This document shows, piece by piece, positions 475 to 16,004 of a DNA stretch of 16,004 nt. Location: the IMG/VR virus record IMGVR_UViG_2579778633_000006; one strand, 5' to 3'. This DNA is from a virus (lineage: Duplodnaviria > Heunggongvirae > Uroviricota > Caudoviricetes). Each line of letters starts with the position of its first letter. Within the stretch, counting starts at the first letter, position 1. A model generated the notes under the pieces. It had not been told where the DNA came from and searched no databases. It saw only the letters and a list, made by a program, of their open reading frames with translations. The position numbers were made by a program, and so were the translations under genes.

Positions 475-496
475 AAAAGTAATATTCAGGGATGAC

Positions 497-1045
497 ATGT
501 CTCATAATTCAGATATCTATAAACTGATCGGAGCGGCCGCAGGTGTTGAAAATGGTCGCTCTGAAGCATCCTTAAACTCTACTGACAGTCAAGAGCAGGC
601 TTTTGAATCCGCATTTGAGCCGTCTAATCATGAACGCGATGATGATTCTTCTTCAGAAAATAAGGCTATTCTGGAGGAAGAAGAGTTTGGTTCTAATACT
701 GGTGCATTGCATGAGTTTATGCAGCAGAACAGAATGGACAGTCTTCAAGCTCAGCTTGATATGCTCAAATCACAAGTACGGGATAAGATAGCTGACGCAA
801 CTGGTAAAGAAATAGACAATGAGCTCCGGACAAAAATGGCATCATTCACGGTTTGGTTTATGTCGTGTTGGTGCTTATTCGTTGTCGCAATGTTTACATC
901 GTTTCTTATTGCACATGAAGGAAAGGCTCCAGTTGAAGCGATCGTTGCATTACTAGGTACAAGTACAATTAGTATTGTTGGTTTGGTTGGTTTCGTTGTT
1001 AGTGGATTGTTCAAATCAAGAAAAGATAGTGATAAAGAAAAATAA
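497..1045 (+). CDS. Hypothetical small membrane protein (acidic N-terminal region, two C-terminal TM helices); candidate toxin partner of the upstream Panacea protein
   Basis: 182-aa ORF with AGGGA 6 nt upstream of ATG. C-terminal hydrophobic stretches FTVWFMSCWCLFVVAMFTSFLI and AIVALLGTSTISIVGLVGFVVSGLF. Ends at a hairpin terminator. Confidence 0.5.
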   Translation: MSHNSDIYKLIGAAAGVENGRSEASLNSTDSQEQAFESAFEPSNHERDDDSSSENKAILEEEEFGSNTGALHEFMQQNRMDSLQAQLDMLKSQVRDKIADATGKEIDNELRTKMASFTVWFMSCWCLFVVAMFTSFLIAHEGKAPVEAIVALLGTSTISIVGLVGFVVSGLFKSRKDSDKEK

Positions 1046-1078
1046 CCCGTACATATACGGGTTATCCATAGTTTTAGT
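1044..1078. terminator. Bidirectional intrinsic terminator between convergent genes
   Basis: Perfect 8-bp stem AACCCGTA(1044-1051)/TACGGGTT(1056-1063) with 4-nt loop; T-rich sequence on both strands flanking the stem. Confidence 0.5.
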
Positions 1079-1348
1079 TTAGTTATATTTTTTTTCCGTT
1101 CTGACTTTTTCCCACTCAGCTCGCCCTTCTTCCCGTCTTTTGTCAATATATTCCGCAAGATCCTGAATGTTGATGCAGCGTTTTGCTTTTTGTGATGTAC
1201 CGATGCGATATGTAGGTACAGGCAACTTACAAGCGTTTGCTTTTGCTTCTGCTGTGGCTGGACTCATACCAAAGTATTTTTGACTAACTGCTGAGAGTTC
1301 AATGTTTGGGGTATTGAATTCAGCCATCAGTAAAAACAAGGTATTCAT
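1079..1348 (-). CDS. PrtN-family (pyocin activator-like) small DNA-binding protein
   Basis: 89-aa ORF; N-terminus MNTLFLLMAEF and central LPVPTYRIG...SQKAKRCINIQDLAEYID resemble PrtN-family proteins as I recall them. GGAGA RBS about 8 nt upstream of ATG (minus strand). Confidence 0.5.
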   Translation of the reverse strand: MNTLFLLMAEFNTPNIELSAVSQKYFGMSPATAEAKANACKLPVPTYRIGTSQKAKRCINIQDLAEYIDKRREEGRAEWEKVRTEKKYN

Positions 1349-1384
1349 ATCATTTCTCCATCATAACCGGCTGCACCCGGTGAG

Positions 1385-2221
1385 TTACTTATTCATTTCA
1401 ATAATATTATTTTCTATCATTGATTTATTTAAAACCAAAGAAGGAGCAAGATGGTTGTCTATTTTAAACAATGCATAACTTTTAAACTGTTGGTGATATC
1501 CGTAACTAATAAGGATGCTAGAAAAATCTCTTAATTCATCTTCTTTTAAAAAATTAAAATGAAATGGGTTGTCACCATTTATGAACAATGAAACATCTAT
1601 TATGCAGTATTTCTCTCTGTTGTCATTTGCATAGAAAAAAATATAAGACATTCTGTTTGTTAAGACAATGCCATTAAATTTTCTTATGTCTGTAGCTATT
1701 TTGTTTTCCATGTTTGGTGCCACATATTTATTTTCAGAAATACATTTAATTTCATCTCCAGATGTCGTGATTATATAAAAATGAAACTTATCATAAATAT
1801 CTAACTTAACTACGCCATCATTATTATAAAGGCTGCTAAATTTTGGTGGTTCAACTTTTAAAGAATCATAGTTCTTTAAAAGAAGAGGGGAGTCAAATTT
1901 AATAACTTGTAGTATCCCTTTACCTTCAACCTCCATATTGATTGAAGATATAGCAATTGCATTATCTCTTTTATTATTCAGGATTATGGTTGATATATGC
2001 ATGTCATATATTCTACTTGCATTTGCTGAATACGACACTGTCACCTTTTTTGATATTTTTTGCACGCCAAAATATATAGTGAAGGCAGCGGCAAGAATAG
2101 ATAAGAATTTAATGTCAAATAAGGACCATAGCCACATTAGTTGCTCAATTGCTTCAGAGTTAATCATTTGCTTTACCATTATCGCTGTAATACAACACAT
2201 GTGTATATATACGCAATGCAA
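1385..2221 (-). CDS. Hypothetical protein, AT-rich, with N-terminal TM helix; start codon uncertain (alternative ATGs at 2179 and 2167)
   Basis: 278-aa ORF in markedly AT-rich DNA; hydrophobic segment FLSILAAAFTIYFGV near N-terminus; no motif I can assign. Confidence 0.45.
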   Translation of the reverse strand: MHCVYIHMCCITAIMVKQMINSEAIEQLMWLWSLFDIKFLSILAAAFTIYFGVQKISKKVTVSYSANASRIYDMHISTIILNNKRDNAIAISSINMEVEGKGILQVIKFDSPLLLKNYDSLKVEPPKFSSLYNNDGVVKLDIYDKFHFYIITTSGDEIKCISENKYVAPNMENKIATDIRKFNGIVLTNRMSYIFFYANDNREKYCIIDVSLFINGDNPFHFNFLKEDELRDFSSILISYGYHQQFKSYALFKIDNHLAPSLVLNKSMIENNIIEMNK

Positions 2222-2353
2222 TTATTTTGCAAGTGCTTCATTTACTATCAATAGCTTCGTCACGTTATTGTTTAATGGTTCTTTATAGGGGCGGCAATAG
2301 TTAAAATTATCGCTTCCGTAAACGCCCCCGCAGGGGCATTTGCAGTAATGAAA

Positions 2354-3178
2354 TCAGGCGGTGAAAGTACCAATAAAGGTTTCTACTTTGCTGTCTTTGA
2401 ATTTCTCAACAAGCAGATCACGAAATTCGTTAGCCATTTCTTCCTGTACCGCTTCCAGCTGAATAATGCGCAGAACCAGTACAGGACGATCGCCAGTGAT
2501 AATGCTGAGGCGTAATTTAAACGGACGTTCTTTCAGACCTTCAAACGGAACGCATTTAAATTCAAATGCCACTGGCATAATGTCTTTGGTCTTCGCTTCG
2601 ACAGACTCCATCAGGGAGCGTTTGCCGCTGAAGTCATTATCTTCAAAATCAGCGGTCTGGTTCGCTTCAATTGTGATTTTACGGATCGCCGCAGCCGCTT
2701 TGGTTGCCTGAATGGCGTCACCATTAGCATCAAAGCCCACAAGGTAGTCGGCCCAGTCTTCAATCCATTCTGCCAGTGACTTCTGGGAGTTACGCTCGCC
2801 GTTAACAGACAACAGAGCAGAGAACGGTGCTGTCTTTTTCAGTTTGAGAGTGGCGGTGTTATCTGCGTGACCTGGTTCATCAATAGTACCCAGGTTAAGC
2901 ACACTGACGGCACGCATATTATCGGCATCGATAAAGCAGCGGGTGCCTTCATCTGCAAGAACTTTAGAATAACGGGTAAAGTCATCGATGCTGGCAGTGG
3001 AAAGCGCACCACGGAAACGGAAGCGATTTAAATTAAATTTTTCCAGATCATGAATGCGGAAATTCTCAGGCAATGCCACAGCATCGGCACCAATCTTACT
3101 GATAATTTCATTAACACCCTGAGCAGAAATAAGGGCATGGATTTGATTAATTGCGGTTGCGTCTAAGTTCTGAGACAT
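2354..3178 (-). CDS. YfdQ-like (DUF2303) prophage protein
   Basis: 274-aa ORF with E. coli-typical codon usage; GAGGA RBS ~7 nt upstream of ATG at 3176-3178; length and N-terminus match my recollection of CPS-53 YfdQ-family proteins. Confidence 0.5.
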
Positions 3179-3243
3179 AATAAGTCCTCACTATATAAAA
3201 ATATTCAGTGATGAGATAAATAATCAGTTTATTAAGAACGATA

Positions 3244-3606
3244 TTAACGACCTGCTGCGCGGAGTTTTCCGTCAGGTTCACCGGCAAGAGTCAGTAATTG
3301 TCCCTGGTCCTCCTGCAGAATAGTCAGGCGACCACCGCGATTGACATACATCGGCGTTTCGGTGGTGTCTTCTTCGGAAATTTTCCCGCGGTTAGTCGGG
3401 CGAACATATGAGAGTTTGTGTTTGATTTTCACACGGTTCTCATCAAATGGTTCGATTTCCAGGTTGAGTGAGACCTTACCTTTGGTTTTCGTGTTCATCA
3501 CACCGGAAGCGACTTCACTGAGAACTGCGCCGATTTTGGTTTCAAATACGCCGCCGTCCAGCTCCCCGATAAATGCCTGCACATCAGTACTGCGTTCGCT
3601 AGCCAT
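3244..3606 (-). CDS. Conserved prophage protein of unknown function (120 aa)
   Basis: Start placed at internal ATG 3604-3606 (MASERSTDVQ...) because GAGGAG (3614-3619, minus strand) sits 7 nt upstream; the longer 197-aa ORF extension has implausible Cys/His/Arg/Pro-rich composition and runs through strong hairpins. Confidence 0.5.
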   Translation of the reverse strand: MASERSTDVQAFIGELDGGVFETKIGAVLSEVASGVMNTKTKGKVSLNLEIEPFDENRVKIKHKLSYVRPTNRGKISEEDTTETPMYVNRGGRLTILQEDQGQLLTLAGEPDGKLRAAGR

Positions 3607-3654
3607 TTTGCTGCTCCTCATCATATCGACCCTGCAAGGTCGGTTGGTTTCTCC

Positions 3655-3789
3655 ACAAAACAGAGAAGAACACCTGCGGTGGCAGCCGCCCGGATGGATT
3701 GGGTTATGAGCCCGTCGTCCGGTGATGCTCTTCTCTGTTTTGTAAAAAGAGCGGTACCAGCCGGAAGCAAGTGTACAAACTGGTACCGC
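3655..3789 (-). other. Tandem stem-loops in the long leader between candidate OL operators and the first leftward gene (possible structured RNA or antitermination-type element)
   Basis: 16-nt inverted repeat with 1 mismatch (3655-3670 ACAAAACAGAGAAGAA vs 3728-3743 CTCTTCTCTGTTTTGT), followed by a perfect 10-bp inverted repeat GCGGTACCAG(3751-3760)/CTGGTACCGC(3780-3789). No convincing ORF in the 666-bp gap 3607-4272. Confidence 0.3.
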
Positions 3790-4189
3790 CAAAGCAGTGG
3801 CTGTTGTGGTGGGGTTGTCACTCAGGCGTATGGTCAACCTGACAATCCGGTGTCCTCAACGGGGAAAGAGTAACCCCGCCATACTTACCGCCGCGCCATT
3901 TCGCGGATTACCACAACGCTGAGAGCACTTAGCCAGTTACGGCACCACACTTTGTCGCGGTTCCATAAATGCCCTCATCGTTGCACCCTGGTCTCTTCCC
4001 AGGCGTCAAACCGGATCGCCACGCTGGTTAGGCGTCTTATCAGCATCATCATTGACTTGCACATTCCGGCTACCTGGTTTGTTTGCCCGAGCAAGGAGTG
4101 GATTGTCCCCTTTAACGTCCCCAGACCGCTAACGACGCATGTGCCATACGCCGTGTTACAACCAAATTTAGTTTAATCTTGCCTGTGTT

Positions 4190-4228
4190 ATGTATCCTAT
4201 AGATACATTATGTATCTTAAGGGTACAT
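4190..4228. promoter_or_regulatory. Two adjacent 7-5-7 palindromic operator-like sites downstream of the repressor gene (OL-like)
   Basis: ATGTATC-ctata-GATACAT (4190-4208) and ATGTATC-ttaag-GGTACAT (4210-4228); same half-site family as the palindromes in the cI/cro intergenic region. Confidence 0.45.
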
Positions 4229-4238
4229 TGTCAAGTAT

Positions 4239-4262
4239 AAAAAAACCTGCCGAAGCAGGTTA
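4239..4262 (-). terminator. Intrinsic terminator downstream of the repressor gene
   Basis: Stem ACCTGC(4245-4250)/GCAGGT(4255-4260) with CGAA loop; A7 run on plus strand (4239-4245) gives a U-run immediately 3' of the hairpin on the minus-strand transcript; 12 nt after the cI-like stop codon. Confidence 0.5.
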
Positions 4263-4272
4263 TAAATATTGA

Positions 4273-4947
4273 TTAGGCCTTTATTTTGTATCTTCTTGGT
4301 TTTCCTGAGAAAATCACTGTACCAATTATAGAGCAATTACCGTTGATCTTAATGTAAGGTTCAGGCCAGTTTGGGTTTAATGCTTTGAGGTAACGCTGTG
4401 TTCCATCTTCTATCAACCGCTTGAAGGTGGTTTCGCCTGTATCGTGCATCAATGCAATAACGTCGTCACCGTGGCAGGCAGGGACTTCAGGATCAACAAA
4501 AATCATGTCTCCCGGGCGGTACTCATCAATCATTGAATCACCAATCACCCGCAAGATATAAGTCATTTCGCCACAGGGTACAGGGCAGGGATAAGTTTCT
4601 GCTGTGCTCAAATCAACCTCAGAATAGCCAACTTCTTTCCATGCTCCGGCCTGTACCCATGATATGACAGGGACTAACGTTATTTGTTTGTTAGTGATTG
4701 AAACGTCAGGTTTTTTTGTGATGTTCGTTGTCTGGTGTTCTTGATCAAGCCATCCGACAGGCAGGTCGAAACATTTTTCGATGTGCCGTGCCATGCTGTC
4801 ACCGATATTTTTAGTTGCACCATCTCCCATAAACCTGCTGGTCTGGGTTGGCTCGCGATCAATCATGGTGGCAAAGGAAGAATTCCCGCCAACACCATCT
4901 CTCAGTTTTCTGGCGTTAGACCGCCGGATGTCATGGACTGTTTTCAT
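4273..4947 (-). CDS. CI-type phage repressor (N-terminal HTH, C-terminal LexA-like S24 peptidase domain)
   Basis: 224-aa ORF; C-terminal VIGDSM (Ser nucleophile context) and downstream FKRL (Lys) typical of autocleaving CI/LexA-family repressors; divergent from a Cro-like gene. Confidence 0.85.
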   Translation of the reverse strand: MKTVHDIRRSNARKLRDGVGGNSSFATMIDREPTQTSRFMGDGATKNIGDSMARHIEKCFDLPVGWLDQEHQTTNITKKPDVSITNKQITLVPVISWVQAGAWKEVGYSEVDLSTAETYPCPVPCGEMTYILRVIGDSMIDEYRPGDMIFVDPEVPACHGDDVIALMHDTGETTFKRLIEDGTQRYLKALNPNWPEPYIKINGNCSIIGTVIFSGKPRRYKIKA

Positions 4948-4963
4948 AAAGAAATTAAAACCT

Positions 4964-5032
4964 TTGTACCGATAAGGTACAAGTATCTTGAAGGTTCATC
5001 TCAATCATGTAATATGTATACCGGAGGTACAT
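4964..5032. promoter_or_regulatory. Immunity switch region: two 7-5-7 operator-like palindromes plus candidate rightward promoter
   Basis: TTGTACC-gataa-GGTACAA (4964-4982) and ATGTATA-ccgga-GGTACAT (5014-5032); candidate -35 TTGAAG (4988-4993) and -10 TAATAT (5010-5015) with 16-nt spacing; the second palindrome overlaps the -10 and the cro RBS. Confidence 0.45.
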
Positions 5033-5037
5033 ATTGT

Positions 5038-5238
5038 ATGAAAGCGTATTGGGACTCTTTAACCAAAGAACAGCAGGGTGAGTTGGCCGGAAAAGTTGGC
5101 TCAACACCAGGCTACTTACGGCTGGTTTTCAATGGTTATAAAAAAGCCAGTTTTGTGCTGGCTAAAAAACTTGAGCAATGCACGTCAGGTGCAATTACGA
5201 AATCTGACTTAAGACCGGATATCTATCCGAAAGATTAA
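5038..5238 (+). CDS. Cro-like small HTH regulator
   Basis: 66-aa reading frame starting at ATG 5038 with GGAGG 10 nt upstream; the longer ORF 4735-5238 is antisense to the repressor gene upstream of this ATG. Divergent from the CI-type repressor. Confidence 0.55.
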   Translation: MKAYWDSLTKEQQGELAGKVGSTPGYLRLVFNGYKKASFVLAKKLEQCTSGAITKSDLRPDIYPKD

Positions 5239-5269
5239 CAGAACACCTTCAATTTTTAACCACAGAACG

Positions 5270-5833
5270 ATGAGGCTAACCGTGGGTAAGCATCACTGGA
5301 AAGTAGAAAAACAGCCTGAGTGGTACGTGAAAGCTGTCAGAAAAACTATCGCGGCGTTGCCGGGGGGTTACGCTGAAGCTGCTGAGTGGCTGGATGTAAC
5401 AGAGAACGCTTTATTCAACCGCCTTCGTGCAGATGGCGATCAGATTTTCCCGCTGGGATGGGCAATGATTTTACAGCGCGCGGCTGGCACTCACTACATT
5501 GCGGATGCTGTCGCACAGTCTGCTGGTGGGGTGTTTGTATCGCTTCCTGAAATTGAGGAAGTAGAGAACGCCGATATAAACCAGCGCCTGCTGGAAGTCA
5601 TCGAACAGATCGGGAGTTACTCAAAGCAGATTCGTTCGGCAATCGAAGATGGGGTAGTGGAGCCACACGAGCAGACAGCAATTAATGATGAGTTGTATCT
5701 GTCAATTTCGAAGCTCCAGGAGCATGCAGCACTGGTCTACAAAATCTTTTGCGCTCCAGAAAAGAGTGACGCCCGCGAGTGTGCAGCTCCGGGCGTCGTG
5801 GCGTTTTGTGTCTGTGGAGAAACTAACGCATGA
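5270..5833 (+). CDS. Hypothetical early-operon protein in the CII-like position (possible regulator); start may be GTG at 5282
   Basis: 187-aa ORF directly after cro-like gene; stop overlaps next start (ATGA at 5830-5833). Function not recognisable by eye. Confidence 0.45.
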   Translation: MRLTVGKHHWKVEKQPEWYVKAVRKTIAALPGGYAEAAEWLDVTENALFNRLRADGDQIFPLGWAMILQRAAGTHYIADAVAQSAGGVFVSLPEIEEVENADINQRLLEVIEQIGSYSKQIRSAIEDGVVEPHEQTAINDELYLSISKLQEHAALVYKIFCAPEKSDARECAAPGVVAFCVCGETNA

Positions 5834-6666
5834 ACAGTTTAACGGCAAATAACCGTTTGTCGCAACAGCTGGTGGTCAGTGTCGCTGAACACCTGTTGTT
5901 ACGGCATGAATGCAGATTACCAAATCACCTGGCTGTAAGTAACCACAGAGAACTTTACCTGACTGTGGGGGGCGAGTTGTGCAGGAACTTAACCGCTGGT
6001 TTCGTGACGGAAGAGGGCTTTATGTCCATGTTATTCGTTGGGAGCCAGAAACACAGCGCGTTATCTATCTTCGCAAAGACTACCCGCATGAGTGCTTTAG
6101 TCCTTTGTGGAAATTCAGGCGTGATTTTGTTGAGTGTGAAGGACCACCAGCACATTGATTCTGCCATTCCGGGACGTTACACTGTTCAGGCACCTTATAA
6201 AGCGGGTGCCGGGATTGGCGTCCTGGAAATGTTATCGGCGATATATGACGCGCCAGCGTCTTTTTTATCGTCTGCGTCTGTGCACACCCAAATTATGGTG
6301 GGCTGGACGGGGGCACCGAAAGGTGCGCCGGTTTCCGATAACGCCGGTTACGCCAACCCCGTTCAGTTCACCACCAGCGAAATTGGCGTTTCCGGTGGTG
6401 AAGGTAATTCACTGTTATCGGAGGCTGCCATCATGGCTACTGTCCCAGCCCTCACTCGTCTGAATGATGAAGACTTACATAAACTCAGTTATGTAACAAC
6501 TGCACTACGTGCTCTGCGCAAGGTAACTCTTTCGGATCCGCAGGCGCATCAAGTTCTGGTAGAAACCCTTCTTAACTTGCAGGCTGAACGTATTCGTCTG
6601 GCGGATAAGGCTAATTTTCATATTCACCGTCTCCTGAATATCAGCGGAGGGCATCGTCATGCTTAA
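5830..6666 (+). CDS. Hypothetical protein (278 aa)
   Basis: Translationally coupled at both ends (ATGA overlap at 5830; ATG 6659 overlaps stop 6664-6666, AGCGGAGGG RBS); E. coli-like codon usage. No recognisable motif. Confidence 0.45.
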   Translation: MNSLTANNRLSQQLVVSVAEHLLLRHECRLPNHLAVSNHRELYLTVGGELCRNLTAGFVTEEGFMSMLFVGSQKHSALSIFAKTTRMSALVLCGNSGVILLSVKDHQHIDSAIPGRYTVQAPYKAGAGIGVLEMLSAIYDAPASFLSSASVHTQIMVGWTGAPKGAPVSDNAGYANPVQFTTSEIGVSGGEGNSLLSEAAIMATVPALTRLNDEDLHKLSYVTTALRALRKVTLSDPQAHQVLVETLLNLQAERIRLADKANFHIHRLLNISGGHRHA

Positions 6667-6895
6667 TCCGTTGATCCTCAATATTTGCCGTTTGCTTCAG
6701 CGTAAAAAAACATCAATTCCTACAGTTGGGCAGTGGTACACCACACCTGCAGGGCATGTTCTACGTGTTAGCCTGGTTGACCGTGAATGCCAGAAGGTGA
6801 TTTGTGAACCGCTGGGCCGTAATTACCGCGTCAGTATGCCGCTTATAGCCTTTCGCTCCGGAAAAAACATGAAGCATCTCGGAGGTGCAGCATGA
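6659..6895 (+). CDS. Hypothetical small protein (78 aa)
   Basis: Coupled to flanking genes (ATGA overlap with next gene at 6892-6895; GGAGG at 6881-6885 serves the next start). Confidence 0.35.
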   Translation: MLNPLILNICRLLQRKKTSIPTVGQWYTTPAGHVLRVSLVDRECQKVICEPLGRNYRVSMPLIAFRSGKNMKHLGGAA

Positions 6896-7710
6896 GTATG
6901 GAGCTGATGGTTAAAGCGATGAAAATTCGAGTGGGTAATCCATTGCGAAAACTGGTTCTGATCAAGCTGGCTGATAATGCCAGCGATCAGGGTGAGTGCT
7001 GGCCCAGCTACCAGCATATTGCTGACCAGTGCGAGATTAGCAAACGTTCTGTGATGAATCATATTGCGGCCCTTTGTGAGTCCGGGCTGGTAAAAAAAGT
7101 CACCCGGAAAGGTGAAAAAGGTAACTCAAGTAATATCTATCTCCTTCATCTGGATGGTGCAGGAGATTCACTAGGGGGTAGTGCAAATAATTCACTATCT
7201 GGTGCAGCAAATTCACCAGGTAGTGCAGGAGTTGCACCAGGGGGTAGTGCAGGAGATTCACCCAGAACCAGTCACTCTTTTGAACCAGTCAAAGAACCAG
7301 TCAATGAACCAATAGCTGTTGGTGCATCAGTTGATGAGTCCGTGCGAGTTCGTTCAAACCGACCGGAATACTCTCCGGAGTTTGAGCAGGCATGGCTGGT
7401 ATATCCCAAACGTGCTGGTGGCAATTCAAAATCTGCAGCCTTCAAAGCCTGGAAAGCCCGTTTGAATGAGGGGGTAAACCCCGAAACCATGCTGGAAGGT
7501 GTGAAACGCTACGCGGGCTGGGTATCTGCGATGGGTAACAGCGGCACACAATTTGTGAAACAGGCTGTCACGTTCTTTGGTCCGGATCGTCATTTCGAAG
7601 AATCCTGGGAAGTTCCTGCGGTATCTGCAGCCAGACGCGAGGACCCGTACTTCAAAGCCAGTTACGACAACGTGGACTACAGCCAGATCCCGGCAGGATT
7701 CAGGGGGTGA
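6892..7710 (+). CDS. Putative replication protein with N-terminal HTH (winged-helix, HTH_36-like) domain and Gly/Ser-rich linker
   Basis: N-terminal LRKLVLIKLADNASDQGECWPSYQHIADQCEISKRSVMNHIAALCESGLV resembles the HTH found in phage replication initiators; low-complexity linker; C-terminal Trp/Tyr-rich domain. Confidence 0.5.
   Translation: MSMELMVKAMKIRVGNPLRKLVLIKLADNASDQGECWPSYQHIADQCEISKRSVMNHIAALCESGLVKKVTRKGEKGNSSNIYLLHLDGAGDSLGGSANNSLSGAANSPGSAGVAPGGSAGDSPRTSHSFEPVKEPVNEPIAVGASVDESVRVRSNRPEYSPEFEQAWLVYPKRAGGNSKSAAFKAWKARLNEGVNPETMLEGVKRYAGWVSAMGNSGTQFVKQAVTFFGPDRHFEESWEVPAVSAARREDPYFKASYDNVDYSQIPAGFRG
7156..7263 (+). repeat. In-frame imperfect DNA repeats encoding a Gly/Ser/Ala-rich linker
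   Basis: GTGCAGGAGATTCAC occurs at 7157-7171 and 7247-7261; AGGGGGTAGTGCA at 7173-7185 and 7239-7251; encodes AGDSLGGSANNSLSGAANSPGSAGVAPGGSAGDSP. Confidence 0.5.
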
Positions 7711-8141
7711 TCATGAGTCTTTTGAATGAAGTTCAGAAATACATTGAAGCCCATCCGGGGTGTACTTCCGGAGACATTGCGGATGCTTTTGCAGGTTACT
7801 CACGGCAGCGCGTTCTGCAGTCAGCAAGCAAGTTACGTCAGAGTGGTCGTGTGGCTCACCGTTGTGAAGGGGATACACGCAGACATTTCCCGCGCCTGAC
7901 TGAGAGAGCGCAGGAGGCGGAACCGCAACCAGTTCGTGAAACCAGACCTGTGCGCAATTTCTATGTCGGCACTAACGATCCCCGGGTGATTTTGTGCCTG
8001 ACCCGCCAGGCGGAAGAACTGGAGTCGAGGGGCTTATACCGTCGTGCTGCAACGGTGTGGATGGCGGCATTCCGTGAAAGCCACTCCCAGCCAGAGCGAA
8101 ACAATTTTCTTGCGCGTCGTGAAGGCCGCAAAAACGTCTGA
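7707..8141 (+). CDS. PerC-family-like transcriptional regulator (C-terminal GLYRRAATVW motif), N-terminal winged-helix-like extension
   Basis: 144-aa ORF with ATGA overlap to upstream gene; C-terminal LESRGLYRRAATVWMAAF resembles the LE..GLWRRAA.RW signature I recall for PerC/Pch proteins. Confidence 0.45.
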   Translation: MIMSLLNEVQKYIEAHPGCTSGDIADAFAGYSRQRVLQSASKLRQSGRVAHRCEGDTRRHFPRLTERAQEAEPQPVRETRPVRNFYVGTNDPRVILCLTRQAEELESRGLYRRAATVWMAAFRESHSQPERNNFLARREGRKNV

Positions 8142-10536
8142 GACGAATGCGGATAACAGCGCACAGGCGGCAGCGGCCTCACAAACTGCATCGGCAAACT
8201 CCGCGACAGCAGCCAAAAAATCAGAAACCAACGCGAAAAATAGCGAGGCAGCAGCAAAGAGCAGCGAAACTAATGCTAAATCCAGTGAAACAAACGCGGC
8301 GAAATCTGCAGCGGACGCACTTAATTATCGCAACCAGGCACAATCCGTTGTTGGTAACAATATTGGTCTTGGTGAAGTTGCTATGACCTGCACTGATATC
8401 TCTGTTGAGCCATCAGGTTATATTGGATTTATCAGGATTTACATCTCAGCGAAAGGTTATCCATCAGTAGCGTCTAGTGCCGGGGATAATCTTATTTCTG
8501 GTTATATAGTTAGATCAGAAGTGTCAACAAAAAGATATTCCGGTCTATTTGTTGGTTCAGATACAAAATCATTGTATTCGTACATTTACAGCCAAAGTTC
8601 TGGCCCGCAATGGATACGTCATACCCGCAGAGATGAATTAAGCCGCTTTGGTCAAAATGAATCAACAACTCGTATGTATGGTCCAACTGGTGATCGTTTC
8701 TTTGAAATCCATACTAACGGGAGTTGGGGGGTTTATGATTCTTCTTCTGGACAATGGTCTCCGTTAGGTTTAGCCCAGGGTGGTACTGGTGGAAGAACTA
8801 TCGAGCAAGCACGTGCGAACTTGCGGGTAATGTATGAGCAAAAAGCTGGCCTTGCTAATACTGACCTAAACACCCTTACCGGTGAATATTCTGGTTTCTA
8901 TCAACAACCAACGAGCGCTTACGCAACAGAAGAATTAAATTACCCAATCGGTCTGGCGGGCGCTTTAATAGTGCTCCAAACGAGAGCCAACACTGCTTCT
9001 TCCTGCGTTCAGGTGTACCACCCTTATAATAATCCGGGAATTACTTATAGACGAATATATGAAGGAGGTAGCGGTACCTGGTCTGAATGGAAGAGAGATG
9101 TATCAACAGAAAGGGTTGAAGAGGGAAAAGAAACAACTTACGTATATTCTACGTATTCTTCAGGCGCACCACGCTTACAGGTTTCCAAATCTGGTTTGTG
9201 GGGTTGTCATAATGGCACTGGCTGGTTGCCATTAGCTGTTGGGCAAGGAGGTACAGGTGCGACAACAGTAGAAGATGCGCGAAACAACTTAAGTCTTGGC
9301 GAAAGTAGCGCAGTTAAATTTAAAAACCTTACTTTAACCGAAGCGCTCGACACGACATTAGGACTGCTTACAAAAACAGGACGAGACTGGAACGCTCAGC
9401 ATACTGATAACGTCGACAAATTTAGACCAATTGCAGGCAGTACAAACGGCCCGGCAGGCTCTATGGTTCTTGGCGGCATTCATGTTCAATTTAGTAAAAA
9501 TTATGCTGTGCAGTTCGGAGGCCGCAATTCCGGTTTTTGGGGAAGAACAATTGAAAATGGAACGACGCAGGAATGGAAGAAATTACTAACAGTAGACGAT
9601 CTCAATTCATCTACCGCTCTTGCTGTCAGGTCATTAACCACATCTAACCCGATAAAATCTGGCGGAGGGCGGATTGATGTCCTTGGAAGCACGTCAGACT
9701 ATAGCAAAATGGATTGCTTTGTACGTGGGTTTGATAGCACCGGTAATTCTCTCGCGTGGGCGTTGGGTTCATCAGTCGGCGTAAGTAAGATGCTGTCGCT
9801 AAAAAATTTCTTTAGCGGAGCTGAGATACTGCTAAATGGTAATGACGGCGCGGTTCAACTCAAAACAGGTGCTGTTAACGGTGCTAAAGCGCAGGCGCTC
9901 ACTATCAACAAGGATGAGGTTAACTCAACTGTTGATTTAACTCTTACAAAACAAACAGGGACTGGCAATCGTTTTGTTTTACAGAACTTAGGTAATACAG
10001 AACTACCATTTGCTGTCAAGGTGTGGGGTTCAGGTGATCGACAAAACGTTTTTGAGGTTGGAACGTCTGCCGCGTATCTGTTTTATGCTCAAAAAACATC
10101 GTCAGGTCAGCTGTTTGATGTAAACGGTGCTATTAACTGTACAACACTGAATCAGTTATCAGACCGCGAGCTGAAAGACAATATTCAGATTATCAGTGAC
10201 GCAACCGAAGCTATCCGTAAAATGAACGGGTACACCTACACACTTAAGGAAAACGGACTGCCTTACGCTGGTGTTATTGCACAGGAAGCAATGGAGGCAA
10301 TACCGGAAGCGGTAGGCTCATTCACTCATTACGGTAAAGAGTTGCAGGGACCAACGGTTGACGGCAATGAATTACGTGAAGAAACACGTTATCTGAATGT
10401 TGACTACGCCGCCGTGACGGGCTTACTTGTTCAGGTCGCCCGTGAAACAGATGATCGCGTTACCGCGCTGGAAGAAGAAAACGCAGAATTAAAACAAAGA
10501 TTATCTGCAATTGAGGCGGCGCTTGCCTCTAAATAA
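8125..10536 (+). pseudogene. Tail-fibre gene remnant, 5'-truncated (no start codon in the homologous region), with intact C-terminal intramolecular-chaperone-like domain
   Basis: KTSETNA/KSSETNA repeats as in lambda Stf-type fibres; two GQGGTGA-T-E-AR-NL tail-fibre repeats; C-terminal SDRELKDNI...NGYTY...AELKQRL resembles the autocleaving chaperone domain of fibres/tailspikes. Fibre homology begins in the +1 frame inside the last codons of the PerC-like gene; the only in-frame start upstream is a GTG at 8044 translating unrelated sequence. Confidence 0.6.
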
Positions 10537-10542
10537 TATTAA

Positions 10543-10568
10543 GGGGCTGTGCGCCCCGTTTTATTGGG
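10543..10568 (+). terminator. Intrinsic terminator after tail-fibre ORF
   Basis: GGGGC(10543-10547)-tgtgc-GCCCC(10553-10557) followed by GTTTTATTGGG. Confidence 0.5.
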
Positions 10569-10572
10569 TAGG

Positions 10573-10866
10573 ATGAAAATGGGTATAACACCTTTCCTTC
10601 ATGCACTTTGTGCTGTGGCTGCGCAGATACTGGTGGGGCTTTTTACCGGAAACTGGGTTTACGGAGCGATAGCCAGTTGTACGTTCTTCATTGCGGGCGA
10701 ACACACCCAAGCATAATATCGCTGGATTGAAATGTTCGGGCATGGCAAGCGGATTAACATGCCGTGGTGGGGCGGTTTTGATCCACGCGCATGGGATGTG
10801 GCAAGCCTGATGGATTTTGCTGTGCCGATGGTAGCGTGTCTTCTGATCTGGCTGTTGATCCGTTGA
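10573..10866 (+). pseudogene. Small membrane-protein gene interrupted by an in-frame TAA (10714-10716)
   Basis: Single reading frame from ATG 10573 to TGA 10864-10866 encodes MKMGITPFLHALCAVAAQILVGLFTGNWVYGAIASCTFFIAGEHTQA * YRWIEMFGHGKRINMPWWGGFDPRAWDVASLMDFAVPMVACLLIWLLIR; both halves look protein-like and are in the same frame. Confidence 0.35.
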
Positions 10867-10870
10867 ACAT

Positions 10871-10915
10871 AAAAAGCCGCAGCAACTTGCCATGGCAGGA
10901 TACTGCGGCTGGTTT
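10871..10915. terminator. Bidirectional intrinsic terminator between the small membrane pseudogene and the RT operon
   Basis: Stem GCCGCAG(10876-10882)/CTGCGGC(10903-10909); A5 on plus strand upstream gives a U5 run after the stem on the minus-strand (RT operon) transcript; TGGTTTGTG after the stem on the plus strand. Confidence 0.45.
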
Positions 10916-10973
10916 GTGAGTTTAAATAGTGTGTTTATTGCGATATATTTTAATGACTTAATGGATTACATAT

Positions 10974-12350
10974 CTATGATATTCCTGAAATATCCTCTTC
11001 AAGCTCTTTTACTGATTTCGCAATTTTAAATTTAAACTTCCTCTCTATTTCACTATTGCTAAGTTTTTTTTCCTTCTCTTTACCTATCCACATAGAAACA
11101 AGTTCTCGTTTCTGAGATATATGTAGATTGTCAAAGTTAGGTATGTATTTAAAAGTCTCCGCTCTACCTCTGCGGAGTTCATAGAAAGTTTTAATCAAAG
11201 ATTTTGGTTTTATTTCTGATGAAAGGCCGAATCGGCGGATAAGATTATTGATAGTATGATTAACAGAGCGAAGTTGAGCTGTTGAGGTTATTTGTGAGAA
11301 GTACGATACCCATCCCAATCGTTTACCTTCAAACACACATCCCGTAATTCTGAGATTTAGTTTCCACTGACAATATGCAACAGCTCGTTCTTTATCACGC
11401 TTACTTTTAGCTTGTAGTAGAGCGTGCCTATATGCAGTAAAAATTTTTGCTAAGGATGACTCAAATCTAAGAATGCTCTCATGTTTTATCAATAATTCTC
11501 GATTTTCTATGTGGTATCCCAAAAAGTTAAAACTTTCATCCAAACTGCCTACTTTGGATTTTGAGTTCTCTTCATTTAATGGATGTGGGTTTAAATTTAA
11601 TGATTGAAGCTTATCAATGATATGAGAAGCTATTTTTGTTGCTTGATATTTTGGTGTTAAAATAAGAATGTCATCAACGTATCGCATGTACCATATGTCA
11701 TGCATTTTATTGATTTCATCATCGAAATTAGATAGTGATATTTCAGCTAAAATGTTTGATATCGCTAATCCCTGAGGTACTCCTCTGGTATTATTAGGGA
11801 TACCTTTGCTTCCTGTGGTTCCACTTACAGTAGGCACGATTAATGATGATGTTATTAACTGTCTAATTTCTTTTTTTCTAATTTTATTTTTTATTGCATT
11901 AATTATCAATTTATGTTCAATTGAAGGATAGAAACTTTTAAGATCTATTTTTGCATATTCAGCATATAGACTGTTGTTTAATGCTTCTTTCAATGAGTCA
12001 ATTACTGTATGTGGTAGTTTTAATCTGGACTTAGGATATATTTCCGTAAGGCATTCACAGAGAGCTCTAAGAGTAATTCTGTCCCTAGCAGTTGGTATGG
12101 AAATCTGTCTGGGTGTAGAGTTAGCGCCTTTAGATATTAATTTTTCTTTATATGCTGTAAATTTGTAATTGCCAGAATTAACCTTTTCAAAAATGAAAGT
12201 GATCTCATTTTTTATTGTCAAATCAAGTTTTGATGGGCGAATCCGATCTATGCCAATCGCTCCTGATTCTTTGATTTTTTCAGAGTATACTTTTAGAAGA
12301 TTTTTTTTCGAGAATGACTTTTTAAAAATTCTGCTTGCAGTCATAGTCAA
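10974..12350 (-). CDS. Reverse transcriptase (bacterial defence-type RT; retron-like vs UG/Abi-like unresolved), 458 aa with C-terminal extension
   Basis: RT motifs in order: GIDRIRP; RQISIPTARDRITLRAL; IDLKSFYPSIEH; GVPQGLAISNILAEI; YMRYVDDILIL (YxDD catalytic box); FNFLGYHI. AT-rich gene; start overlaps upstream TM-protein gene by ~29 nt. Confidence 0.85.
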   Translation of the reverse strand: MTMTASRIFKKSFSKKNLLKVYSEKIKESGAIGIDRIRPSKLDLTIKNEITFIFEKVNSGNYKFTAYKEKLISKGANSTPRQISIPTARDRITLRALCECLTEIYPKSRLKLPHTVIDSLKEALNNSLYAEYAKIDLKSFYPSIEHKLIINAIKNKIRKKEIRQLITSSLIVPTVSGTTGSKGIPNNTRGVPQGLAISNILAEISLSNFDDEINKMHDIWYMRYVDDILILTPKYQATKIASHIIDKLQSLNLNPHPLNEENSKSKVGSLDESFNFLGYHIENRELLIKHESILRFESSLAKIFTAYRHALLQAKSKRDKERAVAYCQWKLNLRITGCVFEGKRLGWVSYFSQITSTAQLRSVNHTINNLIRRFGLSSEIKPKSLIKTFYELRRGRAETFKYIPNFDNLHISQKRELVSMWIGKEKEKKLSNSEIERKFKFKIAKSVKELEEDISGIS

Positions 12351-12873
12351 TCCAAAGATATATTAATGGGAGTATATAAAGTGCGGCAGTAATAAATATT
12401 CGAAGTAATATCCATAAAATAACAATTATTTTTTCTTTTTGTGTGGGGATCCTCGTCTTAAGTCCAACTTGAGTTACCCTTGAAATTTTATCATCTATGT
12501 CACGGTGATTCTCAACCTCATTGAGCAAATTAAAATATTTTTCTTTCTGTTCAAGAGATAACTGTTGACTGGTGGTAATGTCAAAATAGAGTCGCTGTAG
12601 TGCAATATAATTCCTTCTCATGGCTATTGCTCGACCACGAAAATCTAGGTTAGATACGATCAGAGAAATACCCAGTAGAGCCACTGAAAGTATCGCCGCA
12701 ACGACATCTGTATTATCTCCTAGAACCTTTGGAAATCGCAACGTTACAATTGAAAGTACCGCACTCAATATAGCATACCAAACGAGGATAAATTGAGAGT
12801 GTTTTTCAAGCCATTCTAGTCGATGGTGCGCTTGGATACGTGCTTTATATGTAAACCAAATATTGTCATGCAT
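12322..12873 (-). CDS. Multi-TM small protein, SLATT-like (putative membrane effector of the RT system)
   Basis: 183-aa ORF; AGGA RBS 5-8 nt upstream of ATG 12871-12873; hydrophobic helices FILVWYAILSAVLSIVTL, VVAAILSVALLGISLIVS and C-terminal IIVILWILLRIFITAALYILPLIYLW separated by a charged helical region; 3' end overlaps RT start. Confidence 0.6.
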   Translation of the reverse strand: MHDNIWFTYKARIQAHHRLEWLEKHSQFILVWYAILSAVLSIVTLRFPKVLGDNTDVVAAILSVALLGISLIVSNLDFRGRAIAMRRNYIALQRLYFDITTSQQLSLEQKEKYFNLLNEVENHRDIDDKISRVTQVGLKTRIPTQKEKIIVILWILLRIFITAALYILPLIYLWIDYDCKQNF

Positions 12874-12893
12874 AAAAGATCCTTTTTAAAAGC

Positions 12894-13028
12894 GGAAGGG
12901 GCAGGATATATTGGAACCGTTGAACATCCTGCCCGGCAGGATCAGTGAGCATAAGCTCAACAGTAAAATATTACTGTTCATTATCAGAGCCGCCCTTGCA
13001 TGCGCAAGAGGAAAAACCTGCCCCATCC
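12894..13028 (-). other. Palindrome/inverted-repeat-rich non-coding region upstream of the TM-RT operon (candidate structured ncRNA and/or operator array)
   Basis: 12-bp flanking inverted repeat GGAAGGGGCAGG (12894-12905) vs CCTGCCCCATCC (13017-13028), 1 mismatch, 111 bp apart; perfect 17-bp palindrome ATCCTGCC-c-GGCAGGAT (12926-12942) plus an extra GGCAGGAT copy (12900-12907); CAGTA-aaatat-TACTG (12961-12976); CTTGC-atgc-GCAAG (12995-13008). Confidence 0.3.
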
Positions 13029-13095
13029 CTTTGAATTATTACAATTTAATGATCTTAAAGTCAATACAAGTGAATGGTGTCCAGAGATGATGAAC

Positions 13096-13344
13096 TTAAT
13101 GAACAAACCACTCGTCAGCAGACTCCCAGGTATCTTTCAGAGTCTCCTGAACAAAAGTTTTAGCTGAATCTTTATCAGCGGTGCGCGTAACAGAAAGGCC
13201 ATCGTTGCTGGTGGCTTTTACGATCACTTCTACATCGTCATAACGTTTACTGATGCGTCGGGTTAATTCTTCCTTTAACGCATCCACAGCACCGGTTGGC
13301 ATTTTAGTCATTTTTTCTTTGGCTATGCAGATTTCAATACGCAT
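13096..13344 (-). CDS. dinI: DinI-family protein (SOS-inducible RecA modulator homolog)
   Basis: 82-aa ORF; MRIE..IAK...GA.DAL..EL.RRI...LSV....QET...WESADEWFV match the E. coli DinI pattern as I recall it; two LexA boxes immediately upstream. Confidence 0.8.
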
Positions 13345-13358
13345 AAAAGTCCCCTACA

Positions 13359-13402
13359 CTGTATTTGTATACAGTATTATTTTTAACTGTATGGATAAAC
13401 AG
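13359..13402. promoter_or_regulatory. Two tandem LexA (SOS) boxes upstream of the dinI-family gene
   Basis: CTGT-ATTTGTAT-ACAG (13359-13374) and CTGT-ATGGATAA-ACAG (13387-13402); both fit CTGT-N8-ACAG; located 15-58 bp upstream of the dinI start, overlapping the 3' flank of the integrase stop. Confidence 0.7.
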
Positions 13403-13404
13403 TG

Positions 13405-14502
13405 TCAAGAGGTCTTATTTCTGCTCCTTTGGAGTTCTTCAAAACGATTATGTAAAGATTTCGGATACAGTTCGGTATATACCTGCCATAGCACGTTTAA
13501 TGAACGATGCCCTGTAACCTGAGCGACTTCCTCAATACTAAAACCAGCCTCAAATAAGCGACTTGCCCCTTCTCTACGCAAATCATGGTATCTCAGATCT
13601 TTAATACCTAATTTGCTTCTTACCCTCTGAAATCCTGCGGTAACAGAAGTGCTGTTATATGGAAAAATGAATTCTGATTTTTTGGGTTGTCGCTGGACGA
13701 TATCCCAGGCTTCCCCAAGCAAGGCAACTTTCATATGGTTGCCTTCCTTTTTACGTGGATCTTTCCTGTCTCTTACTAGTATAGATTTTTGTTCCTGGTC
13801 GAGATCTTCCCATCGTAACCGGCATACTTCTCCGATTCGCATACAGGACCACACAGAAAATTTGAGGATATCAACGAACGGAATTTTTGAGCATTTATGA
13901 GTAGATCGTTGTTGAAGGCCTTCAATGAGCATGTTCAGTTCATCAGATGCTGGTCTACGATTACGACGGTTTGATTTACCAATCAAACCGAGTTTAAGTA
14001 GATATGGACGAGCGCTTTTCGCCGGGTTTGATGTGTAATTGATTCCGTATACAGGTTTTGCCGCATCCAGAACACTGCCAAGATAACTAACATCGTGGCT
14101 GACTGTTGCTGGGCCTGCACCAGCGTTGTTTCTTAGCCTGCAATGTTCAATTACGTCATTTTCTGTCAGTTCAGATAGTTTGATCGCGGAGATGTCACTA
14201 TCCATAAGCAGTTCCAGCACATATCTTTTAGTACGGCCTGCTTTACCTCCGGCATTTGGGTCATTTAAATATTTGTGTAGTAAGTCACGGACTGTAAGTC
14301 CGTCAACAGCATTTGATGATGGAATGCCATATAGATCTAATTCCATCACTTTCTGTGCGCCCCATGTTTTGGCATGAGCATGTTTAGGGAATGTTTTGCT
14401 TTCCCTGTAAGTGATAACACCTTTTTCTTTGATAATCACATTACAGCGATAGCGTGGTGTGCCATCGGATTTTAGTCGTTTCTCTATGTTATAGTACGCC
14501 AT
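13405..14502 (-). CDS. int: Tyrosine-type site-specific integrase (phage integrase family), adjacent to and divergent from dusA
   Basis: 365-aa ORF; C-terminal catalytic signatures MRIGEVCRLRWEDLD (Arg), YHDLRREGASRL (HxxR), GHRSLNVLWQVYTEL (His/Trp and Tyr). Confidence 0.9.
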   Translation of the reverse strand: MAYYNIEKRLKSDGTPRYRCNVIIKEKGVITYRESKTFPKHAHAKTWGAQKVMELDLYGIPSSNAVDGLTVRDLLHKYLNDPNAGGKAGRTKRYVLELLMDSDISAIKLSELTENDVIEHCRLRNNAGAGPATVSHDVSYLGSVLDAAKPVYGINYTSNPAKSARPYLLKLGLIGKSNRRNRRPASDELNMLIEGLQQRSTHKCSKIPFVDILKFSVWSCMRIGEVCRLRWEDLDQEQKSILVRDRKDPRKKEGNHMKVALLGEAWDIVQRQPKKSEFIFPYNSTSVTAGFQRVRSKLGIKDLRYHDLRREGASRLFEAGFSIEEVAQVTGHRSLNVLWQVYTELYPKSLHNRFEELQRSRNKTS

Positions 14503-14520
14503 TACACGACCTCGTTATTT

Positions 14521-14557
14521 CGGGTTCCCATAAAGCGTGGGAACCTGTGCGGGAACC
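14521..14557. repeat. GGGTTCCC / GGGAACC repeat cluster in the int-dusA intergenic region (candidate recombinase-binding or regulatory sites)
   Basis: GGGTTCCC (14522-14529), GGGAACC (14539-14545) and GGGAACC (14551-14557): one inverted and two direct copies within 36 bp. Confidence 0.35.
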
Positions 14558-14590
14558 TAACGCGAGAAAAATAGCCTGAAATGTTCAAAA

Positions 14591-15628
14591 ATGCACGATA
14601 ATCCTGAAACACAGAAAACTAATCAAACCAGCGTGATGCCTGAAAAAACTGGCGCTTACTGGAGTTCTCGGTTTAGCATTGCTCCTATGCTCGACTGGAC
14701 GGACAGACATTGCCGCTATTTCTTGCGTCTGCTTTCCCGCAATACGTTGCTGTATACCGAAATGGTGACCACAGGGGCGATTATTCACGGTAAAGGTGAT
14801 TACCTGGCGTACAGTGAAGAAGAACATCCGGTAGCGTTGCAACTCGGCGGTAGCGATCCGGCGGCGCTGGCACAGTGTGCGAAGCTGGCAGAAGCGCGTG
14901 GATATGATGAGATCAACCTGAATGTCGGCTGCCCGTCTGACCGGGTGCAGAACGGCATGTTTGGTGCGTGTCTGATGGGTAATGCGCAGCTGGTTGCCGA
15001 CTGCGTGAAAGCGATGCGCGATGTGGTGTCGATTCCAGTGACGGTGAAAACGCGTATTGGCATCGATGACCAGGACAGCTATGAATTTCTCTGCGATTTC
15101 ATCAACACCGTTTCCGGCAAAGGCGAGTGTGAGATGTTTATCATCCACGCACGTAAAGCCTGGCTTTCGGGGTTAAGCCCGAAAGAAAACCGTGAAATCC
15201 CGCCGCTCGATTATCCGCGTGTGTATCAACTGAAGCGTGACTTTCCGCATCTGACAATGTCGATTAACGGTGGTATCAAGTCGCTGGAAGAGGCCAAAGC
15301 ACACCTGCAACATATGGATGGCGTGATGGTCGGGCGCGAGGCGTATCAGAATCCGGGTATTCTGGCGGCGGTAGACCGGGAGATCTTTGGTTCCTCGGAT
15401 ACCGATGCCGATCCAGTGGCGGTAGTGCGCGCCATGTATCCGTACATTGAGCGTGAACTCAGCCAGGGGACGTATCTCGGCCATATTACCCGGCATATGT
15501 TGGGCTTGTTCCAGGGTATTCCTGGCGCGCGGCAGTGGCGGCGTTATTTAAGTGAAAATGCCCATAAAGCGGGTGCAGACATTAATGTGCTGGAACACGC
15601 GCTCAAACTGGTGGCGGATAAGCGTTAA
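14591..15628 (+). CDS. dusA: tRNA-dihydrouridine synthase A
   Basis: 345-aa ORF with conserved Dus-family sequence ([30 protein letters not shown], catalytic Cys region); followed by pspG as in E. coli. The 5' end may be element-derived; true start may lie downstream of 14591. Confidence 0.9.
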
Positions 15629-15660
15629 CTTTTCACCAAAAAGTAGTCAAATTCACCACG

Positions 15661-15687
15661 CCCTGCGCACCGTCGCGGGGCATTTTG
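15661..15687 (+). terminator. Possible intrinsic terminator after dusA
   Basis: CCCTGCG-caccgt-CGCGGGG stem (one G-U pair) followed by CATTTTG. Confidence 0.35.
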
Positions 15688-15693
15688 CTGTTA

Positions 15694-15726
15694 AATCAAT
15701 AGATTATTTTTGGCATGATTCTTGTA
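15694..15726 (+). promoter_or_regulatory. Candidate IHF site plus sigma54-type promoter upstream of pspG
   Basis: AATCAATAGATTA (15694-15706) fits WATCAANNNNTTR; TGGCAT-gattc-TTGTA (15711-15726) approximates the TGGCAC-N5-TTGCW -24/-12 consensus with two mismatches. Confidence 0.4.
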
Positions 15727-15761
15727 ATGCCAGCAAGAGATTTCATATTTGGGAGAGCATC

Positions 15762-16004
15762 ATGCTGGAACTACTTTTTGTGTTTGGCTTTTTTGTCATG
15801 CTGATGGTCACCGGCGTTTCGTTGCTGGGCATTATCGCCGCGCTGGTTGTGGCGACGGCCATTATGTTCCTCGGCGGTATGCTGGCATTGATGATTAAGT
15901 TGCTGCCGTGGTTACTACTGGCGATTGCGGTGGTGTGGGTTATTAAGGCGATTAAAGCACCAAAAGTGCCGAAATATCAGCGTTATGACCGCTGGCGTTA
16001 CTAA
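15762..16004 (+). CDS. pspG: Phage shock protein G (small inner-membrane protein)
   Basis: 80-aa ORF from ATG 15762 (MLELLFVFGFFVMLMVTGVSLLGIIAALVVATAIMFLGG...KYQRYDRWRY), matching E. coli PspG as I recall it; the listed ORF 15552-16004 is an upstream in-frame extension. Confidence 0.85.
   Translation: MLELLFVFGFFVMLMVTGVSLLGIIAALVVATAIMFLGGMLALMIKLLPWLLLAIAVVWVIKAIKAPKVPKYQRYDRWRY

Follow-up and report, generated by a model that had tools for sequence, protein, structure and literature searches.

A lambdoid prophage remnant at dusA

The window, a stretch of 16,004 nucleotides analysed at its full length, is what remains of a lambdoid prophage that entered the E. coli chromosome at dusA. Its early part consists of a gene for a CI-like repressor of the LexA/Peptidase_S24 family (4273–4947, minus strand) and an early-right operon (5038–7710, plus strand) that encodes a Cro-like YdaS, YmfL, Ash, a small open reading frame (ORF) and a replication initiator, with isrK and C4 RNAs embedded in the Ash gene. 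From the repressor to the PerC-like gene that follows this operon, the sequence is 97–98% identical to phages 2H10, Ayreon and SfV. The right part carries, all on the minus strand, genes for a UG17-class reverse transcriptase (10974–12350; RT_UG17, 1.2e-158, PADLOC), an RT-associated SLATT protein (12322–12873; RTasSLATT, 1.5e-56), a DinI-like protein (13096–13344) and a tyrosine integrase (13405–14502), followed by the host gene dusA (14591–15628, plus strand). The reverse transcriptase and SLATT protein are defence cargo; we considered whether the pair is a retron and rejected this, as PADLOC assigned it to the UG17 class of DRT (defence-associated reverse transcriptases) and Rfam revealed no retron RNA.

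We found no terminase, portal, capsid, tail or lysis genes in the window, and neither J nor lom is among its genes. The element therefore has an integrase at its attachment site, dusA, and lacks genes essential for the virion, which identifies it as a defective prophage. We identified no excisionase gene. The early operon is separated from the tail-fibre sequence downstream by the PerC-like gene, with no lysis, head or tail gene in between, as the initial annotation had stated. By contrast, the intact phages mEp460, Ayreon, 2H10 and SfV have about 30 kb between the PerC-like gene and the fibre gene, comprising the Q region and the lysis, terminase, head and tail genes.

A PerC-like gene stump overlaps a tail-fibre remnant

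The PerC-frame ORF extends from an ATG at 7713 to a TGA at 8139–8141 (7713–8141, plus strand, 142 codons), and protein comparison, Pfam and PHROG all indicate that it is a truncated, chimeric member of the PerC family. Codons 1–137 are native and encode 137 of 137 residues identical to WP_072165319.1, the intact allele of E. coli AR434 (164 amino acids as annotated by PGAP, 162 from the ATG used here), after which the two proteins diverge. Codons 138–142 (GRKNV) and the TGA are tail-fibre DNA read out of frame, so that the intact allele continues after residue 137 with RCLRKSSKRA... and the window has GRKNV followed by a stop; the native C-terminal 25 residues have been replaced by these five. 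The conserved region of the family is consequently incomplete. The stump matched the Pfam PerC profile (PF06069) at 23.9 bits, barely above the cut-off of 22.6, over profile positions 5–44, whereas the intact allele scored 39 bits over positions 5–59. The Pfam match to the stump ends at residue 137, as do all PHROG matches to transcriptional activators.

The fibre-frame ORF has an in-frame stop upstream at 7999 and extends for 830 codons from a GTG at 8044 to position 10536. Its first 26 codons (VLQRCGWRHSVKATPSQSETIFLRVV; 8044–8121, plus strand) are PerC coding DNA read in the +1 frame, an artefactual 5′ extension of the fibre sequence, and from codon 27 (AAG, 8122) the ORF reads KAAKTSETNADNSAQ..., an alanine-rich repeat of the kind that characterizes side tail fibres. 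The 830-amino-acid ORF is an accident of the new frame. What follows the extension (8122–10536, plus strand) is an N-terminally truncated remnant of an Stf-type side-tail-fibre gene, as judged by fibre alignments, PHROG (phrog_6578, tail fibre, 4.4e-290) and Pfam. The PerC and fibre ORFs overlap by 23–98 nucleotides. The earlier proposal that the fibre begins within the last codons of the PerC-like gene captured the overlap, but that gene does not retain its own end, and its last five codons are themselves fibre DNA. We also looked in the frame upstream of the joint for fibre homology that the initial annotation might have missed, and found PerC homology there instead.

Comparison with full-length fibres defined what is missing. 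The remnant aligned without gaps to residues 272–1066 of the full-length fibre of strain RMDEC332 (1,094 amino acids; 96.2% identity over 795 residues), whose gene follows J and Lom in a lambda-like tail module, and its alignment to the Stf protein of mEp460 (1,202 amino acids) starts at residue 274. The frame is open throughout and contains no indels. In the full-length RMDEC332 fibre, residues 1–134 form the attachment domain phage_tail_N (PF08400, 3.9e-72), and a Pfam search of the window fibre ORF detected no such domain; the Stf proteins of mEp460, Ayreon, 2H10 and SfV are likewise full length with phage_tail_N. At the other end, the Peptidase_S74 intramolecular chaperone domain (10159–10314, plus strand) is intact. 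It matched PF13884 with 3.8e-13 at residues 681–732 of the 805-amino-acid ORF that starts at 8119, covering profile positions 1–57 of 58, and is also found near the C terminus of the RMDEC332 fibre. Both the absence of the N-terminal domain and the integrity of the C terminus had been anticipated from the DNA letters. A terminator scan placed a terminator-like hairpin directly 3′ of the fibre stop codon (10543–10557, plus strand). Without an attachment domain, and within an element that has no tail, the fibre remnant cannot have a role in a virion.

A survey of start codons in the fibre frame found GTG 8044, GTG 8074, TTG 8110 and GTG 8119 before or at the joint and, beyond it, ATG 8383. GTG 8044 was therefore not the only in-frame start, as had been thought, although it does translate unrelated sequence into the fibre. 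None of these starts is preceded by a well-spaced Shine–Dalgarno sequence, in agreement with the earlier view that the fibre has no ribosome-binding site of its own; the only purine-rich stretch nearby, GAGGGG, lies 11–13 nucleotides upstream of GTG 8044, a distance too great for it to be anything but a poor Shine–Dalgarno sequence. Existing start calls vary, with a gene in a public collection beginning at GTG 8119 (805 amino acids) and PGAP starting the copies in sibling genomes at ATG 8383. Given that no start has a good ribosome-binding site, translation of the fibre remnant is doubtful.

The joint maps to two base pairs

Alignment against full-length fibres and related prophages, as the initial annotation had suggested, allowed us to map the breakpoint to the base. 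The key comparison was with the dusA prophage of E. coli AR434 (NZ_CP029122.1), an element located between zur/DUF2713 and dusA. Positions 1–8122 of the window are 100% identical to the early region of this prophage, and positions 8121–16004 are 100% identical to AR434 DNA that lies 8,915 bp further on. In a three-way alignment, the left AR434 flank reads ...GCGCGTCGTGA and continues past the breakpoint with GCGGTG..., the right flank reads ...TTCCGCGA and continues with AGGCCGC..., and the window reads ...GCGCGTCGTGAAGGCCGC... across the joint. The junction is at 8121–8122, where the dinucleotide GA is common to both parental flanks. The stretch that the flanks share can be widened to CGYGA (8118–8122; CGTGA in one and CGCGA in the other) at the cost of one mismatch at 8120, which is also the single mismatch in the match to the right AR434 flank if that match is taken from 8118 (8118–16004). 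Beyond these 5 bp, alignment over ±30 bp showed no likeness between the parental flanks.

The join is seamless, and its breakpoints fall within two unrelated coding sequences. We found no remnant of an insertion sequence (IS) or other mobile element at the joint. A PerC codon begins at 8121 and a fibre codon at 8122, which confirms that the fibre is in the +1 frame relative to PerC. The onset of tail-fibre sequence is abrupt (8121–8123), as the initial annotation had described; its estimate of about 8125 for the onset is corrected to 8121–8122. The sequences that meet at the joint are separated by 8,915 bp in AR434, by 4,420 bp in E. coli 410 and by 5,182 bp in E. coli EC-TO75. The window cuts both the PerC-like gene and the fibre gene, which elsewhere are whole or run on without a break; this makes the event a deletion in the window's lineage, not an insertion in the others. 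The opposite polarity, in which the window would be ancestral and its siblings derived, is ruled out by the same observation. The deletion scar connects a cut regulator gene with the interior of a tail-fibre gene, giving two broken genes and no visible new function.

Sibling alleles point to successive deletions

We found the same remnant in four complete E. coli genomes, AR434, 410, EC-TO75 and A1_181, with at least 99.97% identity in the shared parts. In these parts, the window is 100% identical to AR434 and EC-TO75 and differs from 410 by a 1-bp indel only. The four siblings differ in their internal deletions. AR434 retains the genes from PerC through Q and the holin, joined to a portal fragment, a tail gene L fragment and the fibre. 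In 410, an intact PerC-like gene and a methyltransferase stump are joined to terminase and portal stumps, the tail-L fragment and the fibre. EC-TO75 has the genes from PerC to a RusA stump, followed by a lysozyme stump, lysis genes, a terminase stump, the tail-L fragment and the fibre, and in A1_181 a YmfL stump leads directly to the tail-L fragment and the fibre. The joint between the tail-L fragment and the fibre is therefore common to all four siblings inspected in full. In AR434, the fibre begins at nucleotide 423 of the full-length gene and is fused to a 72-nucleotide fragment of tail gene L, which is in turn preceded by the portal fragment. The window represents a fifth decay state, and the only one in which the deletion reaches beyond the tail-L–fibre joint. 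The reverse transcriptase–SLATT defence module is kept in all decay states.

These comparisons bear on how the late genes were lost. The initial annotation had proposed that one large internal deletion left a defective prophage; the deletion itself is borne out, whereas the late genes were most likely lost in steps, with the prophage most likely already defective before the window deletion. By parsimony, at least two older deletions shared by the siblings would have preceded it. A one-step origin, in which a fully intact prophage lost all the late genes through one large deletion that also created the joint, would be compatible with the position of the right breakpoint (fibre nucleotide ~811), which lies downstream of nucleotide 423, where the fibre begins in the siblings, so that traces of any older joints would have been erased. 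We nevertheless regard this one-step origin as unlikely. The fibre part that is 100% identical to the window is already truncated in every complete genome for which we saw its context or annotation, with no intact copy among them, and the tail-L–fibre joint recurs in every sibling. Moreover, both flanks of the window joint are 100% identical to decayed alleles, which makes a very recent common origin with these more parsimonious. Because the window deletion took away the very DNA in which the sibling states differ, its size and the stepwise order are read by parsimony, and no sibling state stands out as the immediate parent.

Illegitimate recombination as the probable origin of the joint

Taken together, the joint is very probably the scar of a spontaneous, RecA-independent deletion by illegitimate recombination at a microhomology in a dusA lambdoid prophage that was already defective. 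RecA-independent illegitimate recombination is a common route of prophage erosion. The left breakpoint fell 25 codons upstream of the end of the PerC-family gene and the right breakpoint near codon 271 of a side-tail-fibre gene, most likely one already lacking its first 141 codons, and the ends were joined at the GA dinucleotide at 8121–8122. Depending on the sibling allele used for comparison, the event removed no less than 4.4 kb and as much as 8.9 kb of DNA. Measured against the AR434 allele, the losses comprise the 3′ end of PerC, a Dam-like methyltransferase, a LexA-like gene, RusA, KilA-N, DUF968, the late antiterminator Q, two reverse-strand cargo genes, a second methyltransferase, the holin EssD, the portal and tail-L fragments and 390 bp of the fibre gene. 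The outcome is a PerC stump ending in five foreign residues and a fibre remnant deprived of its attachment domain, its native start and its tail.

From these features we infer slippage or another microhomology-based mechanism, and that neither stump is functional. A microhomology of 2 bp is barely above chance, which makes the mechanistic label a weak one, and the joint is compatible with slippage as well as with end joining of a double-strand break. The junctions that could be mapped in the siblings 410, EC-TO75 and A1_181 have overlaps of 5–7 bp, so that this kind of deletion is a recurrent one at the dusA prophage locus.

We also considered whether the deletion could be the work of a site-specific recombinase or a mobile element, or the product of homologous recombination at repeated sequences. 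The remnant does encode an integrase, and RusA, a phage recombination function, lay in the deleted interval. However, the clean joint described above, whose flanks share 5 bp at most and whose breakpoints are inside two unrelated coding sequences, makes such an origin very improbable, and we retain the spontaneous microhomology deletion as the explanation.

Possible expression of the fibre remnant

With the intervening DNA gone, the early-right operon continues directly into the PerC stump, followed by the fibre remnant. We found no convincing terminator between the operon and the hairpin at 10543–10557, only weak matches at 6247 and 9515, and read-through transcription into the fibre remnant upon SOS induction is therefore plausible. 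As a promoter scan of the plus strand did not find a consensus early-right promoter, the case for such transcription comes from homology with phage immunity regions. Translation of a read-through transcript from the early promoter may be possible at GTG 8044, GTG 8119 or ATG 8383.

One could imagine that, by placing the fibre remnant behind an SOS-inducible early-right operon, the deletion allowed a soluble, S74-processed receptor-binding trimer to be made on induction and to act alone. If so, a truncated fibre trimer could, for example, mask a surface receptor and exclude related phages, and selection, not chance, would explain why the fibre C terminus has survived in all five decay states. 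We give this scenario very little credence. The long open fibre frame does not require selection, because the siblings are 100% identical and the event is too recent for further decay.

The joint is rare but real

Scaffold KK736532.1 of the E. coli draft assembly GCA_000692815.1 contains the entire window at 100% identity. We retrieved the exact 40-nucleotide junction from five loci, each in a separate sample (GCA_000692815.1, the SRA runs SRR24338452, SRR30865886 and SRR1180903, and the ENA metagenome ERZ28588949), and the chimeric 142-amino-acid PerC protein is encoded on 12 contigs. By contrast, a search of 5,426 complete E. coli genomes with a 351-bp spanning query did not find the joint once, nor did one of complete genomes with a 2.5-kb query, and the exact 40-nucleotide junction had no match in JGI metagenome contigs, GTDB species representatives or IMG/VR viral contigs. 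The joint allele is thus rare.

This distribution is relevant to the idea that the PerC-like gene and the fibre are an overlapping gene pair or are read jointly by a programmed frameshift to give a functional product, a reading to which the overlap of the two ORFs and the 2.4 kb of open fibre frame might seem to point. The arrangement is, however, missing from those 5,426 genomes and from both intact phages whose gene order we read. Ayreon has a PerC-like gene (162 amino acids) followed by LexA-like and RusA genes, two more genes, Q, a methylase, holin, lysin and Rz, and mEp460 has J, Lom, Stf (1,202 amino acids, with phage_tail_N), a DinI-like gene and a 365-amino-acid integrase. The fibre frame is +1 to that of PerC and there is no conserved slippery site: the AAAAAC run at 8130–8135 does not qualify as a slippery heptamer when read in the frame of PerC, and even a −1 slip would fail to bring ribosomes into the frame of the fibre. 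As the arrangement originated in a mapped deletion whose recency explains the open frame, we consider a functional joint product extremely unlikely. That the joint is a chimeric contig assembled from two prophage regions, as its absence from complete genomes and the draft status of the source assembly might suggest, has practically no likelihood, because an identical junction in at least five independent datasets, together with the chimeric PerC on 12 contigs, shows that the joint is real.

Relationship to known prophages

A deletion scar in a cryptic prophage is a case of textbook prophage decay, a kind of event that is already known. Among the cryptic lambdoid prophages of E. coli are Rac, Qin, DLP12, e14 and CPS-53. 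Like these elements, the window remnant has lost lysis, head and tail genes through internal deletions and has kept an integrase, an immunity region, cargo or defence genes and side-tail-fibre fragments. It differs from them in having sibling alleles of 99.97–100% identity, so that the joint could be mapped to a 2-bp interval. Decay by deletion is reportedly a general pattern among prophages, as Bobay, Touchon and Rocha are said to have described in 2014.

The right end of the window follows the order of mEp460 (Stf, DinI, integrase), and the mEp460 Stf protein is 84–89% identical to the C-terminal half of the remnant's fibre; the window has a reverse transcriptase–SLATT insert between the fibre and DinI genes, which mEp460 lacks. 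Laboratory lambda PaPa carries a frameshift allele of stf, the gene for the lambda side tail fibre. Lambda stf and the window fibre belong to a homologous class, and in each the gene has been inactivated while the remaining coding sequence stays open, by a 1-bp frameshift in lambda PaPa and by a 5′ deletion and fusion to an unrelated gene in the window. The two fibres also differ in that lambda Stf relies only on a separate assembly protein, Tfa, whereas the C terminus of the window fibre carries the self-cleaving S74 chaperone domain.

A family of dusA-specific integrases, carried by prophages and islands, has been described (Farrugia et al. 2015, PMC4482086). As in those elements, the window integrase adjoins the 5′ end of dusA and diverges from it, and sibling genomes contain a duplicated short fragment of the dusA 5′ end at the far end of the element. 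This mode of integration fits the dusA-specific integrase family, and the window is a decayed example with nothing notably different.

The significance of the joint beyond correct annotation is slight. In this lineage, annotation as an intact gene is warranted neither for the 142-amino-acid 'PerC' ORF nor for the 830- or 805-amino-acid 'tail fibre' ORF. The finding has modest value within the decay series, in which five near-identical states of one dusA prophage provide a base-resolved view of how an element is whittled away by successive short-microhomology deletions while its immunity region, integrase and reverse-transcriptase defence module persist throughout.

A defence module kept across deletion states

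Between the fibre remnant (the N-terminally truncated Stf-type tail-fibre gene) and the DinI and integrase genes, we found a two-gene defence module on the reverse strand (10974–12873). PADLOC assigned its reverse transcriptase to the UG17 class of defence enzymes (RT_UG17, 1.2e-158) and the gene preceding it to an RT-associated SLATT membrane protein (1.5e-56). The module is not a retron. The intact lambdoid phage mEp460, unlike the window prophage, has no RT/SLATT module at the corresponding position. All five decay states of the dusA prophage (the window and E. coli AR434, 410, EC-TO75 and A1_181) kept it.

Two short forward-strand ORFs, 10549–10716 and 10732–10866, lie after the fibre terminator and before the reverse transcriptase gene's 3′ end; both match phrog_1443, a single PHROG family of unknown function. 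The first covers profile positions 1–45 of 97 and the second 52–95, each corresponding to one half of the family. The two ORFs are one small gene split by an internal stop. PGAP annotated the split gene as a pseudogene in sibling genomes.

Accessory genes and small RNAs

The left end of the prophage carries, on the forward strand, a gene for a protein with a Panacea (SocA-like antitoxin) domain (1–474) and, after it, a gene for a 182-aa protein (497–1045) that had no match in Pfam or PADLOC. Together, these proteins could be a toxin–antitoxin or defence pair.

Rfam placed isrK (6190–6266, 63.7 bits) and a C4 antisense RNA (6291–6378, 82.8 bits) next to each other, both on the forward strand within the Ash or 'immunity region' ORF (5830–6666, forward strand). 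The pair resembles a P1/P7-type antisense immunity cassette inside a lambdoid early operon.

Alternative deletions of one prophage

In AR434, the interval from Q to the lysis region holds two reverse-strand cargo genes (12751–15122 of the AR434 locus), one for a nucleoid-associated protein and the other for a hypothetical protein of 408 aa. Both fall within the interval deleted in the window and are gone from its lineage. AR434, 410, EC-TO75, A1_181 and the window show the same dusA prophage in five different states of deletion, with identity of at least 99.97%. The joint between the tail-L fragment and the fibre is common to four of these states, and the three junctions for which a sibling allowed mapping (410, EC-TO75 and A1_181) have overlaps of 5–7 bp. 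The five states constitute a natural series for studies of prophage erosion.
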